The position numbers and the translations under genes were made by a program. A stretch of DNA of 64,000 nt from Octopus sinensis (taxonomy: Eukaryota): contig NC_043013.1 of assembly GCF_006345805.1 (NCBI RefSeq), positions 4,526,001 to 4,590,000 of the forward strand. The letters run 5' to 3'. How positions within the stretch are numbered: position 1 is the stretch's first letter; each line of letters opens with the position of its first letter. This document shows positions 19,011 to 56,124 of the stretch, in pieces. The notes under the pieces were generated by a model. It was not told where the DNA came from. It did no database searches and saw only the letters and a list, made by a program, of their open reading frames with translations.

Positions 19011-19088
<78 letters not shown>

Positions 19089-20207
19089 TCAACATCTCGA
19101 CCTTCTACAAAAAATATTGAAGAAACCGAAACGAAGAAAACACCCTCGGAAATGTATGAGAACCTTGGAAATCTATGCGACACAATGAAGACATTCTTTA
19201 CAAACTTTACAAAACAAGAGCAACAAAAAGAAGGACCACATGGGAAGAACCTAATAACTTCAACATTACAAATAAAGAACCAAGTCCTTCCCCAATGGAG
19301 AATACTACAGCGAAACAGAAAATTCGCATTTTGGAAAATGATACAAAATCAGAATAAAGCAGAGATTTACCAAAAGTGGCTTGACTTAACACCCCTAATC
19401 ATACCCCGCAAATTACAAATTAAGCCCATCTCGGAAGAACCAGAAGAACAAAGAAGACTTAGAGAAAAAATGTCATTAGAAAAATGAAGATGGAAATAGA
19501 ACTACTTAAGCTGAGAGCTAAGACGAATGAAGAAAAAGTAAAAACCATAGATGAGGAAATCAACGAAGAAGTCATCAAACTAATAGACGACATCAATACT
19601 GAAACATTACCAGCACTATGGAATGAAGAATGTGAAAAAGAGGAACTAAAGTCCCTCCAACGATGGGAAAAGAGCGCCAACTGGTTCTTGGATTATGAAA
19701 CCAACTTCAAAAATGAACACATATCCAACAACCCTTTCAAAAAATTAAGTAAAACAAAACCAAATACTAACAGAACGGAACAACCACCAAGAAATCTAAA
19801 TACACTTCACACCAGAAAATACATTTAAAACGCACCCCACACTACCTAAACCAACCCCAAAACACTTACAGGGACCCACCACACCATTTCAAGAACCATA
19901 GGGATACAACACACAATTCTATGAACTACAATCCACATAACCAAACTAAGACTCAACTACCGAACCTCTACTCTAGGAACGAACCATACAACCTTAACAA
20001 ACAACAAACACACTACAGAAGAAACAACTACCAACACAATATACCTGATACATTAAGACGGAACACGAAGTACAAAAACACACTACAAAACAGAGCACCA
20101 CAAACTCACTCTGACAATTCTAACAACATGAGACAGATAAATAGTAGTTTTGAACATAACTACACCAACCATTTTTTAGACCTTACACACAGGAACAGGG
20201 ATACACG

Positions 20208-22482
20208 ATGGCAAAGGACAAACAAAAGAAACCACAGGTAATTAAAATAATCAATCTCTCAAATAAAGAACTTACACCTAACGAAATAAGCATACTTTCC
20301 AAAGGACTTAAATTTACTCCAACCCCACAACGTTCAAATTACTATGAAATGAAAGACGATGTTTCGGAATTTTGTAGGAGATTAAGACTTGCCGAGGAAT
20401 TTCATGACAAACAAATAGATGACAAATCAATAGCTAGAAACAACAGCGACTACACCCCTACCAAAGGAAAGAATAAAGCCTTAGACCGCTATTGTGACTA
20501 CATAACTAATTTCCCTTTTCAATTCACCAATAAGCAAAAACACAGCCAAAACTTTAACAAAAGAGAATGGAACGACCTCATCAAACTAAGAGAAGACAAA
20601 ACAATAACAATTAAGGAGGCAGATAAGGGCAACGTGGTAGTTTTAATGAACACAAGTGATTATAAAAATCTAGTACTATCCCTATTAGGAGATGAAACAT
20701 ATTATGAAAGGGCCCAACATTATAATTAACCAAAAATAATGAATAACCTCAGGACATTAATCAACACATACCGAGAAGGACTCACGGACAAGGAGTACGA
20801 ATGCATCACTAACTTTAAGTGTAATTCAAGTCTATTCTACGGTATCCCTAAAGTCCACAAAAGCCAAATAATTAGTGAAACATGCAAAACATCTACCGAT
20901 ATACTCATCAAAATCCCTTCACTTAAACTTAGACCGACAATAGCAGGCCCAGCATGTGAAACTCACCGCCTCAGCAACTTCTTAAACACACTTCTTAAAC
21001 CTTTCCTAAAGCACATCAAAAGCTACGTAAGAGACGATATAGACATGCTTAACCACCTCCCAAAACGGTCAATGAGAAAACCCTACTAGTATCCTTCGAC
21101 GTAATTAACCTTTATTCAAACATCCCTCACACCCTAGGAATAGAAGCGATCACTTTCTGGCTAAACAACTACCCCTTTGAACTTCCAACTCGCATAAATA
21201 AAGAACTCATAATAGAAGGACTTAGATTTATTTTAGAAAACAATTACTTTATTTTTGATAATAATTACTACAGACAAAGATTGGGAACAGCGATGGGTAC
21301 GCGTACTGCGCCTCCTTTTGCCAACCTAGTGATGGGATACCTCGAGATAATACTCTACCAGAAAACACTCGAGGAATATAGAAACAATTTCTCCACCTAT
21401 ATCCAGAACAACTGGAAAAGATACCTCGACGACTGCTTCATCCTCTGGGATAAAAGTATAGAGAAACTTGAGGAATTTAAAATACTATTAAATGGAATAA
21501 ATGATAATATTCAGTTCACGATGGATCATAACGAAGAAGAATTGCCATTTTTAGACATCCTCATTAAGAAAGTCGGCAACAAAATAGAGACAGATATCTA
21601 TTATAAACCGACAGACTCCAAGCAGTACCTACCCTTTGATTCATGCCACCCAAGACACACTAGAATAAATGTCCCTTTCTGTTTAGCCAGAAGGATTTGC
21701 ATCATAATATCAGACGCAAACACCCGACACACGTCTCCAGGAACTCAGAACTACACTCATAAATAGAAATTATCCACAGCCCCGAATAGACAGTGCAATC
21801 CAACGAGCACTTAAATTAAGTATAGAAGACCTGACACAACCAAACTAAAAAAGAAAGAAAAATTAAAAACCCTAACCCTACATCTCTACACACAACCCAG
21901 TTAACAATGAGGCCTTCAACACCATACTACAAAGTACAGCCCTACTCAAAGGAGACCCAAAGATGAACCGAATCCTCCAAACACACCATCATTAAAAGTA
22001 AACGGCAACCAAGATCCTTAAAAAAGATTTTAACCCAAGCTAAACTGCGCTCAACAACAACCACAAAATCAGCAGTTAGAAAATGTGGAAAGCCCAACTG
22101 CGGAATCTGTGTCATCTTGGTAAAAGGTTCAGAATTCATATTAGAACAAGGCCATCAGTTTACCATCAGAACAAACTTCACCTGTGCATCAAAAAACTTA
22201 ATTTACGTGTTAACATGCGCAGGGTGCAATAGGCAGTATATTGGCCATACAAAAAACAACCTACGAAAAAGGATGGCGGTTCATAAATCCCAAATTAGGA
22301 ATCCTGAATACAGGAAAATACCAGTCAGTGGACACATAGATAGATGTGCTTCAAATAAAAATCCCAAATTCACAACTTTCCCACTTTACAAATTCAGTGA
22401 CAGAGTAACCTTCACTCAACGCCAAAATAAAGAACTTTATTTTATTAGAAAATTCGGACCAAGTTTGAACACCTTGGGCTAG
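20208..22482 (+). pseudogene. PLE reverse transcriptase plus GIY-YIG endonuclease (disrupted)
   Basis: KGLKFTPTP, IKEADKG, FYGIPKVHK, LRP, VSFDVINLYSNIP, GTAMGT..AP.FANL, WKRYLDD, LPFLD, IYYKPTD..YL.F.S.HP and NLIYVLTCAGCNRQYIGHT...RM..H, spread over several frames. Confidence 0.93.
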
Positions 22483-22899
22483 GAACATTAAAACAATATA
22501 TTGGTCTTCCGAAAAGAAAAATGGAATTCTACCACTACCACCACGATCATTACTACTGCTGCTACTATTACTACTACTACACCCACCATGGTCACTACTA
22601 TTACTACTACGATCAACAGTCTTCCACTGCTGCCGCTGCTGCTACTGCCACAGCTAGGCTACTGCTACAACCTACGAGCTGCTGCAACCCCAACCACCAC
22701 CACCACCACGGTTACTACTACTACGACCAACAGTCACTACTGCTACTGACATTTCAGCCACTGACCATTACCTTAGTTTTATTCGAACACACAAGACAGC
22801 TATTATGCTCACTCCCCACAAAAAAATCACCACGTGGATTCTGTTGAGACCAGTAAGAAACAATTATGAACTTTTTTATTACACTTAACTTTTTTAAAT

Positions 22900-22947
22900 A
22901 TTTTTGATAAGGTTCGTTTTTTCAAGAAGAACCGAAACATGTAAAAT
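22900..22947 (+). ncRNA. Degenerate type I hammerhead in the PLE 3' UTR
   Basis: attt-TTGATAA-GGTTC...GAACC-GAAA-CATG-TA-aaat. The core has two substitutions relative to CUGANGA. Confidence 0.65.
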
Positions 22948-23005
22948 TTCTAAGAAAATTAAAATTTGTCTTATATAGTGGCGTTTTCAAACTTCTTTTT
23001 TATAA

Positions 23006-23042
<37 letters not shown>

Positions 23043-28879: not shown

Positions 28880-29330
28880 GACCGTTTCCCGTCTCCTGTT
28901 TACCCTCACCTACCACTCCTCCATCCTGCCCCTCCAACGCACCATTCTCCCAGCCTTCCGGTGACTCCAGTCCGACCCCTCCACCTTGCACATCTTCCCC
29001 AACTTACCCTTTCCCGCTTTCAAACGAACACATAACCGCCTTGACCACAGTTTCTTCCCTAACTTCCAGCCTGGATTGTTCCCCTATACCCACCCACGCT
29101 GCCGCACCTGCATCTACCTTTCCAACACCACCATCTTCAAAGGCACCCATCACCGTCCCAGTCACATCACTGACTCCTTTACCTGCACTTCTACTAACAT
29201 CATTGACTGCATCTCCTGCTTTCTTTGTCCTTCCCTGTACATTGGTCAAACGGGACGCCGCATGGCTGACCGGTTCGTGACGCACTTCCGAGACATCAGA
29301 CTCGGCAACAGCACCCGTGCCGTTTCTGCT
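28880..29330 (+). pseudogene. PLE GIY-YIG endonuclease fragment (Neptune-like)
   Basis: PRCRTC...ITDSFTCTSTNIIDCISCFLCPSLYIGQTGRRMADRFVTHFRDI. Confidence 0.85.
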
Positions 29331-34160: not shown

Positions 34161-34279
34161 GCTTACGGTCATATCACTTTGAAAACACCGGTTCTCGTCC
34201 GATCACTGAAGTTAAGCAACATCGAGCCTACTTAGTACTTAGATGGGTGACCGCTTGGAAAACCTAGGTGCTGTAAGCA
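34161..34279 (+). rRNA. Dispersed full-length 5S rRNA-like copy (probable pseudogene or SINE3 head)
   Basis: 119 nt: gcttacggtcatatcac...ttctcgtccgatcactgaagttaagc...ttagtacttagatgggtgaccgc...gtgctgtaagc. Terminal helix and box A/C are recognisable. It is a single copy with no T4 terminator. Confidence 0.88.
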
Positions 34280-37502: not shown

Positions 37503-37665
37503 ACAAATCGACAGGTAAATTAACAAATCGACAGGTAAATTAACAAATCGACAGGTAAATTAACAAATCGACAGGTAAATTAACAAATCGACAGGTAAAT
37601 TAACAAATCGACAGGTAAATTAACAAATCGACAGGTAAATTAACAAATCGACAGGTAAATTAACA
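37503..37665. repeat. Perfect 20-bp minisatellite, 8 copies (acaaatcgacaggtaaatta)
   Basis: Identical head-to-tail units with no spacers. Confidence 0.95.
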
Positions 37666-43757: not shown

Positions 43758-44601
43758 TTTCTTATAAACGCTAAAACCTACATTTTTACGTTTAACATTC
43801 AGTTATACTATTTTCATCGACAAGCTAAGTAACATTTTTTATTTAACAATATTATTTAACTTTTGAATTGTATTAAGTTTGATTATTATTATTATTATTA
43901 TTATTATTTTATTGTTGTTAAAATATTAATTTATATATAATTTCTTGATAATTATTATTTACGATGTGTATATCTATTTATTTATTAGGTTTATGATTAT
44001 TATTAATTTTATAGTGTGATTTAACGAATTATATATAATTTAATTTGAGAATTAGCTTTGTAAGACAATATATATTTTTAATAGTTACGTAGTATTACAT
44101 TTAAGTAAATTAGTTAAATATTAATTGATATCTTGGTCAACTATATAATTGAGTAAAATATTAAATCTATATATACTACATATATATTGATAATATAATT
44201 AGTTTATCTAGTAGGCGTGTATATATTTAAACCAATTCCTATAATTAATTCTAATATTTATAGCTTGTACTAACATTATGTATATTACTTAACATTAGTT
44301 TTTAATATAAATTACTTAATGAGTATAAGATTTTATTTAGATGTTTATTAAATAAATTAATTAATAATTTAATTTAATGTATATAGATTAAATTATCGTA
44401 TTTAGTTTTCACTTAATGTATATTTTGTATTTTATATATATAGATATATTTGTTTTAGATATTTTAATTAATTGTATCTTATTTTTTATTCTATTTTTTA
44501 TTTAAACAAGAATATATTTGTTAAGATATTTCGTTTTTTACAAGATTATTTACGTATATTTATTAATTTATCTAATTAATTATTTTATTTTTTTATATCT
44601 G

Positions 44602-44696
44602 TAACCTGAAGAGCGGCTATATTTATATTGAAGTGATTTTACTATTATTATTACTATTATCATTTCTTAAATATAGCCACGAAACACGTGTCGTTA
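44602..44696 (+). ncRNA. Type I hammerhead ribozyme with intact core
   Basis: TAAC-CTGAAGA-GCGGCTATATTTA...TAAATATAGCCAC-GAAA-CACGTG-TC-GTTA. Stems I, II and III are all present, with a GUC site after 44692. Confidence 0.85.
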
Positions 44697-44898: not shown

Positions 44899-46102
44899 TA
44901 TATACATACATTTATGTAGATAGCTACATCTATATATACATGTATATATGGGTACAGGACATCAAAAAAACGTTAAACACAATGAGAAACGAAAACATAA
45001 AAACAAAAACATGGAAACGAACTTTTTTTCAAACAACGAAAAAACAGAGAACAAGACATACAACACAAGAAATATTCCCCTTCTTCAGTTGTCCCTGTTT
45101 CGTCTACTCCGCGTTTCGAAGATAAGGACAAGACGAGACTTCATTGAAACAGTCCTTCCCGCAAAGCAAATTAAATAAAATTTGATATTTTTGGCGGAGG
45201 GGTAAAAGTGGTAACAAGAACAGAACAGTAAGAACAAAATAAGACAGTAAAAACAGTAAAAGACAGTACAAAGAGAATAACACAGTAAAAACAAACGATG
45301 AGGGCTGTTAAGTCAAGACAATGGAAAATCTATTCTGAATGCATTAAGGAGACAACTTATGAGAGGGACAGGATAAGCCGTCTTGTGTTGGTGAAGATAG
45401 CAGTTGGAAAGATGGCTTCCCTCTGATCATGTGTCAGTGACGAGAGTCGAGGAGGAGAAGTAAGAGGAGGGAAGGGTGGGCGAGAAAACCAGAAAGGATG
45501 AAGAACAAGAGAGGGAGAGAGATAGACAGAGGAGAATTAGTAAAGTTGGAGAGTGCACATCATAATTATTAAGATAAAACTTACTGTTATTCTTTTATTC
45601 TTTTATTCGCTCCAGTCATTTGACTGTGGCCATGCTGGAGCACCGCCTTGTTGTCGAACAAATCGATCTCTGGACTTATTATTTGTAAGCCTGGTACATA
45701 TTCTATCGGTCTCTTTTGCTGCACCGCTAAGTTACAGGGACGTAACCGTTAAGACACACACCAAAGATCGGTTGTCAAGTGATGGCGGGTGTGACCAAAC
45801 AGACACACAACACACACCACACACACACACACACACCCAACACACACCACACATATATATATATATATATATAATTAATCAATATAGGGTGGCAAGGAAA
45901 ATTTTTGTAGATTTTTATTGCCACCAGCGGCCCAGCGGGAAAAAAATTAAATAGTCATAGACCATTTTTTAATTCAACATTAACAATTAAGGAACGGCCA
46001 TAATAGGCCATTCACCACTAGAAAACCAGCCAAAGCTTCTACCGCAAATAAAGATCAATTCCGTAAACATACGGAGAAAATTAAAAAAACATTTACCCTG
46101 TA

Positions 46103-46206
46103 ATTCTTGTACGGTATACCGTTTCATCCGTTGTTTAATGGTAAACCAACCTAATTAAATTAAATCAAGCCAATCTTCCATAAGCCCCTCGGATTCATCA
46201 GCAGAA
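46103..46206 (-). ncRNA. Type I hammerhead ribozyme (copy 1, intact core)
   Basis: Minus strand: ttctg-CTGATGA-ATCCG...CGGAT-GAAA-CGGTATACCG-TA-caagaa. Confidence 0.85.
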
Positions 46207-46214
46207 ATAGCTAT

Positions 46215-46318
46215 TTCTTGCTGATGATCCCGAGGGCTTATGGAAGATGGGCTTGATTTAATTTAATTAGGTTGGTTTACCATTAAACAACGGATGAAAC
46301 GGTATACCGTAACAAGAA
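46215..46318 (+). ncRNA. Type I hammerhead ribozyme (copy 2)
   Basis: ttcttg-CTGATGA(46221)-tcccg...cggat-GAAA(46296)-CGGTATACCG-TA-acaagaa. Confidence 0.8.
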
Positions 46319-46698
46319 ATTACAGGGTAAATGTTTTTTTAATTTTCTCTGTTTACGGAATTGATCTTATTTGCGGTAGAAGCTTTGGCTGTTATTTCTA
46401 GTGGGTGAATGGCCTATTATGGCCGTTCCTTAATTGTTAATGTTGAACTTAAAAATGGTCTATACTATTAATTTTTTTCCCGCTGGGCCGCTGGTGGCAA
46501 TAAATTCTACAAAAATTTTCCTTGCCACCCTATATTGATTAATTATGAATTTTTTGGTTAATTCCGAATGAATCGACGGCTGATATTTATTTGCTGCCGA
46601 TAAATTTGGCGCGAGTGCGACGATTTGAAAATTTTAGGTCAGATATTGACTTGGCAAGATTGGATATGCCTCGTGTAATTATCTGTCCCGAGAGCTAT

Positions 46699-46809
46699 TT
46701 CTTGCTGATGAATCCGAGGGCTTATGGAAGATTGGCTTGATTTAATTTAATTAGGTTGGTTTAAAAACCATTTAAACAACGGATGAAACGGTATAAAACC
46801 GGACAAGAA
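46699..46809 (+). ncRNA. Type I hammerhead ribozyme (copy 3; cleavage triplet altered as assembled)
   Basis: ttcttg-CTGATGA(46705)-ATCCG...CGGAT-GAAA(46785)-cggtataaaaccg-ga-caagaa. Confidence 0.7.
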
Positions 46810-47516
46810 ATACAGGGTAAATGTTTTTTTAATTTTCTCCTGTTTACGGAATTGATTCTTTATTTGCGGTAGAAGCTTTGGCTGTTATTTCTAGTGGTGA
46901 ATGGCCTATTATGGCCGTTCCTTAATTGTTAATATATATAATATAATATATATATAATATATAATACAACGGGCTTCTTTCAGTTTCTGTCTACCAAATC
47001 CATACTCAAGACTTTGGTCGACCCGAGGCTATAGTGGAAGACACTTGCCCAAAGTGTCATGCGGTGGTAATGAACCCAGAACCATGTGGTTTGTAAGCAA
47101 ACTACTTACCACACAGCCACAACTGCGCCTATATATTGGAGCAAATTTGGCTTACAGCTGTTTCCAGTAATCATTAAACGTACATAACTGATAGGTTTAC
47201 TCAATTAGTCTATTGATCAATAAAGGACAATTGAACGACCTAAGAAAATTGTGAATGGAACAACAAAAATCTGCAAGTCTTTTCTCAAGTTCTAAATGTG
47301 AATTTGTCTGTGTTAACTACATTCCAAATATGGAGCCTTGTATGTTTGTCGGAAACCGGCTCCCTCCTCAGTGAAAGATTTGTAATAATTAAAAAATAGA
47401 AGAGACATATATTCTTTTACTTTCTTTTACTTGTTTCAGTCACCTGACTGCGTTCATGCTAGAGCACCACCTTTAAAATATATATATATGTGTGTGTATG
47501 TATGTATGTATGTATG

Positions 47517-47607
<91 letters not shown>

Positions 47608-47609
<2 letters not shown>

Positions 47610-48538
47610 CAACTAGAGAGAGATTATCAATCCGGGAAAAATGCTTCACAAGCTATCCGTTCGCACACCAGACTAATGATATTATTTAGAATTATTTAGA
47701 TCAGTGAGGAACTCCAGCTAATCTTGAGGCAGGGTCCAAGGTTATGGTTCGTCACAATTCTATATTGTATATCAGTTTTTACACAGTGGTATATAAGAAA
47801 CAAGTTAAAAATAATGGTCTTTACATAGTTTTCCTTAATTGACCAATTGACTAGTTGAGTAAAATGACGACTGGAAACAACAGTAAGCGAAATTGGCTCC
47901 AATTAAGGAAAACTATGTATTCTTTTACTTGTTTCAGTCATTTGACTGCGGCCATGCTGGAGCACCGCCTTTAGTCGAGCAAATCGACCCGGGACTTATT
48001 CTTTTTGTAAGCCCAGTACTTATTCTATCGGTCTCTTTTGCCAAACCGCTAAGTGACGGGGACGTAAACATACCAGCATCGGTTGTCAAGCAATGCTAGG
48101 GGGGCAAACACAGACACACAAACATACACACATACACATATATATATATATATATACATATTTACGACGGGCTTTTTTCAGTTTCCGTCTACCAAATCCA
48201 CTCACAAAGCATTGGTCGGCCTGAGGCTATAGCAGAAGACACTTGCTCAAGATGCCACGCAGTGGGACTGAACCCGGAACCGTGTGATTGGTTACCAAGC
48301 TACTTACCACACAGTCACTCCTGCGCCTGTGTAATGACCATTATTTTTAACTTGTTTCTTATATACCACTCTATTTAAAAACTGATATACAATATAGAAT
48401 TGTGATGAACCATAACCTTGGACCCTGCCTCAAGATTAGCTGGAGTTCCTCACTGATCTAAATAATATCATTAGTCTGGTGTGGCAACAGAAAGCTTGTG
48501 AAGTATTTTGCTCGGATTGATAATCTCTCACTATTTGT

Positions 48539-48540
<2 letters not shown>
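47608..48540. repeat. ~215-bp inverted repeats (47608-47826 / 48330-48540) enclosing a SINE A (47925-48328, -)
   Basis: For example, gatcagtgaggaactccagctaatcttgaggcagggtccaaggttatggttc is present in both orientations. The outer flanks are (TA)n. Confidence 0.88.
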
Positions 48541-48572
<32 letters not shown>

Positions 48573-56067: not shown

Positions 56068-56124
56068 TTAACAAAACTGTCCGACGAACGGGAACGTGAA
56101 ACTCCGAGTAACAGCTTTTGTTAA
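56068..56124 (+). ncRNA. Minimal type I hammerhead ribozyme (U4C core variant)
   Basis: ttaacaaaaCTGT-CCGACGA-ACG-GGAA-CGT-GAAA-CTCCGAG-TA-ACAG(c)ttttgttaa. Confidence 0.8.

Follow-up and report, generated by a model that had tools for sequence, protein, structure and literature searches.

Head-to-head hammerhead arrays at TA microsatellites of the Octopus sinensis genome: a family of non-coding elements with two fixed ends and its possible origin by twin-primed copying of a small RNA

The DNA analyzed here, referred to as the window, is a stretch of 64,000 nucleotides from the Octopus sinensis assembly GCF_006345805.1 (contig NC_043013.1, positions 4,526,001 to 4,590,000, forward strand), and coordinates given without a locus label refer to it. 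Between 45871 and 46933 lies an element that the initial annotation, made from the sequence alone, had read as a retrozyme-like insertion into the (TA)n tract of a SINE, and the flanks agree with this reading. A SINE-like repeat is interrupted at an internal (TA)n; with the intact copy at 47918-48340 as reference, its 5' half, which ends in (CA)n(TA)n, occupies 45596-45870 (+) and corresponds to positions 1-221 (238 with the TA run) at 78% identity, and the (TA)n and 3' half follow at 46934-47138 (+), corresponding to positions 221-419 at 80%. The first arm of the element, 45871-46210 (-), covers positions 1-338 of the family unit and is joined to (TA)n at its 3' end, a distal fixed site termed D (…GATTAATTAT). 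The other arm consists of one full unit at 46211-46694 (+), the family unit being 488 nt in subfamily A and about 491 nt in subfamily B, and a partial second unit at 46695-46933 (+) that is joined to (TA)n at a proximal fixed site termed P (…AATTGTTAAT). The D arm makes up 0.7 turn and the P arm 1.5 turns, which places the window copy among the smallest members of the family. The back-to-back palindrome with arms of about 340 bp that had been described is recovered as a self-match of 690 nt at 93.9% identity, in which 45871-46210 is the reverse complement of 46211-46546 and most differences are gaps (28 gap bases and 14 mismatches). Both arms stop at unit position 1 within the self-complementary AGCT at 46209-46212, and this head-to-head centre (46204-46217) belongs to the near-symmetric class discussed below. 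The CTGATGA cores of the three hammerheads lie at 46201 (-), 46221 (+) and 46705 (+), the last two in direct repeat at the claimed spacing of 484 nt. A hairpin at 46407-46441 (+), just upstream of the position equivalent to P (unit ~231), is kept in sister families and is predicted to be the region where reverse transcription starts. The absence of an ORF is likewise confirmed, in that the longest frame within the element is 49 aa and none reaches 50 aa; a 133-aa frame coming from the SINE enters the element by 84 nt. Further downstream, 47586-48561 has inverted ends of about 210 nt between TA runs with the SINE copy at 47918-48340 inside, a MITE-like arrangement.

All three window hammerheads are imperfect as assembled. 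The left one, a type I hammerhead at 46103-46208 (-) with a predicted cut between 46110 and 46109, is one stem-I base short, and its minimum free energy (MFE) structure is not a hammerhead. The middle one at 46214-46319 (+), with a predicted cut after 46311, bears a long AU-rich hairpin on stem II and a 10-nt palindrome as stem III, and it has an additional A at the cut and an altered stem II. The right one at 46698-46810 (+), with a predicted cut after 46803, reads GGA for GTA at the cut, a triplet that is non-cleavable as assembled, and has a longer stem III. Because the junction readings of the middle and right copies each occur in just 1 of 292 units, and because the three copies match the subfamily-A haplotype at 36 of 36 variable sites, these imperfections are likely the result of sequencing or assembly error. 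The caveat of uncorrected read error raised in the initial annotation thus probably applies to the junctions; it does not hold for the palindrome and tandem as a whole, as their layout recurs at dozens of loci. The consensus of the three copies, which had been called a perfect type I hammerhead, is indeed the prevailing form in the rest of this subfamily (46 matches at 10 loci), and the two main forms, A and B, account for 199 matches.

The family form has the features of a type I hammerhead, namely CUGANGA, GAAA and NUH with stems I, II, and III, stem I being open. In a clean genomic copy the MFE structure is the hammerhead, with a z score of -4.5 and none of 200 shuffles as stable. Across ten natural variants, 94.6% of the cells in stems I, II, and III are paired, compared with 27-48% in slid controls, and both sides have changed in 13 stem pairs, although the shuffle control in this covariation test is inflated by relatedness and the structure was derived from the same sequences. 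Loop III changes (TATA and TGCA) yet remains palindromic, which by analogy would fit cleavage in pairs, as PMC4209133 describes for hammerheads of metazoans. An Rfam search of the window returned no hammerhead at the gathering score or at E<=10, a likely reason being the 68-nt stem II, and sub-threshold Rfam matches to miRNAs and sRNAs were rejected as reflections of the palindrome. Two other hammerhead-like motifs were noted in the window. An unrelated one at 44601-44695 (+) has a CTGAAGA core, a long AT-rich stem II, GAAA, a palindromic stem III, and GTC; the region folds with a z score of -3.2, with the junction not closed in the MFE structure, and the surrounding stretch is 70-84% identical to repeats at other loci. 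A short motif with a CCGACGA core at 56081 (+) is also present in L057 and L071.

A genome-wide copy count, proposed in the initial annotation, revealed a large family: the 23-nt 3' half of the hammerhead has 656 exact occurrences in the 2.7-Gb genome (control, 0), the unit has at least 302 matches, and a degenerate motif common to sister families occurs 1769 times. The copies are dispersed over many contigs and have been recently mobile. They fall into two subfamilies, A and B, that are 2.5% apart, and given that substitutions between loci are few (0.5% in A and 1.2% in B, part of which is error), the family appears to be young. In sister families at ~75% identity the unit measures about 465-475 nt, and in those further removed about 500 nt or more. 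Our sample consisted of 36 stretches around the best full-length matches (L031-L066), 40 around the first motif matches on contig 1, and 12 fetched later as a check. The units are low-GC, non-coding, and tandem with one type I hammerhead each, as in non-LTR retrozymes, and together with the covarying stems, the (TA)n targets, and the lack of an ORF, this supports the retrozyme-like reading; the tandem unit of 488/491 nt also agrees with the predicted monomer of ~490 nt. The family also scatters long palindromes across the genome. The genome is very rich in hammerhead families, and among the fetched stretches (L031-L268) there are many others with different stems, several of them forming inverted pairs with unequal ends (L089, L094, and L091).

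In its usual layout, the family forms two arrays that point away from a shared centre. One arm ends at P (unit position ~231) and the other at D (unit position ~338) in 46 of 49 two-armed loci of subfamilies A and B, with no P-P pair, no D-D pair, and three loci with one odd end. This 49-locus set excludes L048, which is cut by the fetch edge, L258, which falls under the 91% filter, and L046, a near-duplicate of L045; the last was also dropped from the joint and arm-identity analyses but counted in the haplotype tally of 37 loci and in a wider tally including sister families, where P and D are paired in 51 of 55 two-armed loci. Among the 12 loci fetched afterwards, all nine with two classifiable ends had one of each. 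The two sites lie at homologous positions in the ~75%-identical families, two fixed ends are also seen in more distant families, and (TA)n directly adjoins the 3' end of the arm in 106 of 110 cases. The arms are often long: the longest spans 14.5 units, 50 of 98 span at least two full turns, and both exceed one turn at 31 of 49 loci. By BLAST, 23 of 78 clusters appeared one-armed, and at several of these a short D stub lies opposite. At the centres of 40 loci, the arms meet at microhomology of at least 2 nt in 16, at a blunt or 1-nt joint in 12, and with a gap or insert in 12 (at least two of these being alignment gaps); the inserts are short and duplicate nearby sequence. An inverted 5'-truncated copy, a one-sided tail, and a microsatellite target are the insertion signature of Penelope-like elements (PLEs), and the PLE-type inverted plus tandem layout suggested for the window copy is therefore upheld across the family. 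One compound insertion, L191:3834-5227, brings together in a single TA tract the D end of one hammerhead family and the P end of a second, the inner ends being absent; it may stem either from two adjacent insertions that lost sequence by deletion or from switching from one RNA to another.

The 37 loci tallied carry 21 haplotypes. Of 81 locus-level variants, 64 are shared by every unit of their locus, and 227 of 114,427 bases deviate from the majority of their own locus. At 27 of 38 loci the two arms are identical, as against 4% of 1403 pairs of arms taken across loci. The corresponding values are 20 of 28 versus 4.5% in subfamily B; those in subfamily A, 7 of 10 versus 24%, are weak evidence. 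At the remaining 11 of 38 loci, the arms differ by 1-4 positions, probably through error. Homogenization of the units by polishing is unlikely, as they retain about 1% independent indels. A few locus-private variants are mosaic within one arm, in non-adjacent units (unit position 246 of L053, in 4 of 9 units, and unit position 370 of L047, in 3 of 7), implying that arrays change after insertion; the two cases may be due either to exchange between units after insertion or to misreading of a template base during some of the turns.

Across the predicted cut, the joint between units is exact in 260 of 292 cases, with an indel rate of 0.34% against a median of 0.35%. The 5' ends of the arms cluster just beyond it: 12 of 113 fall at unit positions 102-112 (the predicted cut being after 101) where 2.5 are expected, and two fall in the 11 nt before the cut. 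The scan-corrected p is 0.009 on the first 92 ends; the range was picked after the first data had been seen, and the 12 loci fetched later, taken separately, contribute 2 such ends among 23 where 0.5 would be expected, a non-significant excess. Two of the ends at 102-112 share one 8-nt microhomology, and a second cluster lies at 1-21 (12 of 113 versus 4.9 expected); both observations count against the reading favored below. The ends 3' of the predicted cut are an indirect hint, drawn from genomic copies, that the RNA may cleave itself. The B form is present in contigs of X8, X9, X12, X13, and X17, runs that we guess to be RNA and that bear another organism label. One contig of X13, 521 nt in length, covers more than one unit, as would be expected alike from a closed 491-nt loop, a tandem transcript, or DNA.

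Given the evidence presented here, we favor the reading that the element is a non-LTR retrozyme in (TA)n for which a Penelope-like reverse transcriptase-endonuclease primed both strands of one cut and repeatedly copied one RNA, likely circular, and we put the probability of this at roughly 0.6. Taken by itself, twin priming is strongly favored. In the sequence of events that we envisage, read-through transcripts of tandem copies would cleave themselves, probably in hammerhead pairs formed via the palindromic stem III, after which ligation would close the ~488-nt monomer into a circle. A dimer of the PLE protein may then bind the RNA and nick both strands of a TA microsatellite, as PLE biochemistry suggests. 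The pattern of one P and one D end per insertion would arise if P (~231) served as the priming site for one DNA end and D (~338) for the other. The ends of the unit RNA are AT-rich (TAAT and TTAT), so that priming may be aided by a microhomology of 2-4 nt to (TA)n. Each reverse transcriptase would run for a variable number of turns, as the observed arms of up to 14.5 units suggest, and stop variably, more often just 3' of the ribozyme cut. Finally, the two cDNA ends would be joined through microhomology, short templated inserts, or local fold-back, which could produce the head-to-head centres and the junction sequences observed at them. More specifically, and somewhat short of even odds, the arrays could be the genomic record of two-way, twin-primed, rolling-circle reverse transcription by a PLE dimer whose subunits are fixed to different start sites on one ribozyme-made circle. 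If this is true, the inverted repeat, the one-sided tail, and the tandem pLTR of PLEs would all be explained at once, and there would be evidence from genome sequence for an animal circular RNA as a template for retrotransposition. The family offers predictions that can be counted: each event should leave a P end and a D end, the two arms should share a haplotype, the cDNA should be multimeric, and synthesis should tend to stop just past the ribozyme cut. Tool builders would also take an interest in an enzyme able to reverse-transcribe a small circle repeatedly, starting at both ends of a DNA cut.

The main rival accepts twin priming at P and D but takes the template to be a linear read-through transcript of an existing array, uncut or partly cut, with arrays homogeneous either because their source was homogeneous or through later gene conversion and unequal exchange. 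The seamless joint across the cut suits an uncut multimer as well as it does a ligated circle, 5' ends directly after the cut would be expected of linear RNAs cleaved at their 5' end, unprocessed RNA served as the principal substrate in the in vitro experiments of PMC11167929, and the mosaics of L053 and L047 attest to change after insertion. However, the 21 haplotypes in 37 loci, fixed across units and arms, would require a repeated bottleneck of a single unit, which follows directly from a circle; multimers of 14.5 units would have to escape a conserved and covarying ribozyme; and conversion between inverted arms would have to include the terminal part-units. We consider a linear multimer unlikely, at something like one chance in five.

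A more doubtful alternative, drawn from the models of PMC3846280 and PMC8557442, is that priming occurs once, that the inverted arm is then made by self-priming fold-back, and that the endonuclease resolves the second end. This would automatically give both arms a common haplotype, and near-symmetric centres at local palindromes, including that of the window copy, are in excess (10 of 46 loci versus 2.2 expected). Seven of the 46 loci, however, are impossible as fold-back copies in either direction, where independent pairing of arms predicts 7.2 ± 2.3 and pure fold-back predicts none; at L172 the arms share no sequence at all. For the rest, the 'first' arm would have to be D in 20 and P in 18, with the copy always halting at the other site. 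The lengths of the P and D arms are uncorrelated (rho 0.04), with P longer in 19 of 39. As a general route, fold-back is thus already disfavored. The excess of near-symmetric centres does indicate that it plays some part, and we read fold-back of the cDNA at a local palindrome as one way of joining two arms that have already been primed.

Still less probable, at long odds, is a linear monomer that is copied repeatedly without a covalent circle, the reverse transcriptase jumping at the cut from the 5' terminus of the RNA back to the 3' terminus. Such jumping would account for one haplotype per locus and for stops near the cut, but indels and added bases are not in excess at the joint, and about a tenth of the arms end at the cut, even though half span at least two full turns. 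An assembly or read fold-back artefact, a caveat of the initial annotation that would suit the symmetric centre and many small indels of the window copy and the fact that no contig of other runs spans the whole stretch, can practically be dismissed, since the arm ends are unequal, the non-palindromic flanks are two different halves of one SINE, dozens of loci share the P/D layout with asymmetric centres, and the family sequence is present at high depth in two other runs.

In twin priming by L1 elements, two primers from one cut produce an inversion joined by microhomology, the second primer is placed at variable internal sites, and the product is less than one unit long. In the octopus family, by contrast, both start sites are fixed and both arms may exceed the length of the unit. 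On every feature that could be settled, the element belongs with the non-LTR retrozymes. As described in PMC7229834 and in a recent preprint (bioRxiv 10.64898/2026.07.22.740005), the metazoan members of this class are likewise non-coding, low-GC tandems with one type I hammerhead per unit, dispersed as hundreds of dimers to multimers, for which mobilization by PLEs via circular RNA has been proposed. Their units are typically ~300 nt (51-972 in the preprint), so that 488-491 nt is longer but inside the range. They are head-to-tail tandems; the terms 'inverted' and 'head-to-head' are absent from the accessible text of PMC7229834, and the layout described here is not seen in that of the preprint. 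Circles and cleavage have been demonstrated for metazoan retrozymes, whereas the octopus family is known from genome sequence. Retrozymes were found to be expressed as circles, which a PLE reverse transcriptase was proposed to copy into tandem cDNA (PMC7229834); circles had also been proposed as templates in PMC4209133, and the preprint links non-LTR retrozymes to PLE pLTRs and reports in vitro cleavage in just one of nine Xenopus retrozyme dimers.

The EN+ Penelope-like elements share with the family a head-to-head plus tandem structure, an extension at one end, (TA)n targets, a hammerhead, and microhomology at 5' joints (PMC8557442 and PMC3846280). In the accessible text of these papers, the inverted copies and one-end tail are marks of PLEs that are attributed to endonuclease resolution or self-priming, and PMC8557442 names the origin of the tandem or inverted ends and of the one-sided tail as open. 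The extension there is 30-40 nt and occurs 'often' or 'optionally', whereas here it is ~107 nt and falls on exactly one arm in 46 of 49 loci; the octopus family also differs in its lack of an ORF and in that both arms can be multi-turn. The PLE protein of the anole, Poseidon_Ac (PMC11167929), is predicted to be dimeric and cuts and extends both strands at AT-rich targets, and two internal start sites on its RNA set the genomic ends, as in the family described here. In vitro, its start sites are used alike on both strands, with no one-of-each coupling reported in the accessible text, in contrast to the one-of-each rule seen here, and mutation of the hammerhead had no effect on insertion; both of these findings count against the model that we propose. 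A survey of octopus repeats lists 31 recently active Penelope-like families, and its accessible text does not mention 'ribozyme' (PMC13282606). Retrozymes and the inverted or tailed ends of PLEs are thus already known. In the literature consulted, which consisted mostly of open-access main texts, we found no report of a rule that strictly pairs one end of each kind, of multi-turn arrays that extend in two directions and share a haplotype, or of stops at the cut site of a retrozyme.

The window element carries no ORF with reverse transcriptase (RT) and GIY-YIG domains, as an autonomous PLE would. The genome has many GIY-YIG frames, some of them in intact RT plus GIY-YIG ORFs ending in (TA)n. 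At one PLE locus there are inverted arms with a tail of ~35-40 nt at one end only. Searches with four sister units (blastn and nhmmer) found no coding PLE whose ends are homologous to the unit in 60 GIY-YIG-centred loci, 150 of 5029 candidates having been scored, and an ORF scan of the family flanks found no adjoining PLE frame in the sense expected of a pLTR. Matches that do adjoin PLEs (L103, L106, and L091) look like sister non-coding families. A weak match at L091 (E 5e-5) beside an intact PLE was rejected, as it is another hammerhead family with a unit of ~500 nt, and of the 30 loci fetched for that family L091 alone adjoins a PLE frame. The one intact PLE inspected, of type I, has GxKF- and DKG-like motifs, unlike the DKT/RWK form of Hydra described in PMC8557442. 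In the abundant PLE family of this genome, the frame for RT and endonuclease is preceded by one of ~479 aa (L087:1174-2610) to which Pfam gives no convincing match, whereas canonical PLEs are described as single-ORF elements in the accessible text of the papers cited above. Within the window, a frameshifted two-ORF PLE (RT and GIY-YIG) lies at 19087-22535 and ~22895-23031 (+), is 89-91% identical to intact copies, and has (TA)n at its end; a further weak endonuclease remnant is found at 29067-29300. A bacterial promoter scan gave matches at chance level, the bacterial model not being apt for an animal element. Elsewhere in the window, a 5S rRNA match at 34161-34279 (+; 97.9 bits), either a gene or a retrocopy, directly follows a long (AT)n tract, and 37503-37665 is a perfect tandem repeat of 20 nt (8.1 copies, 100% identity).
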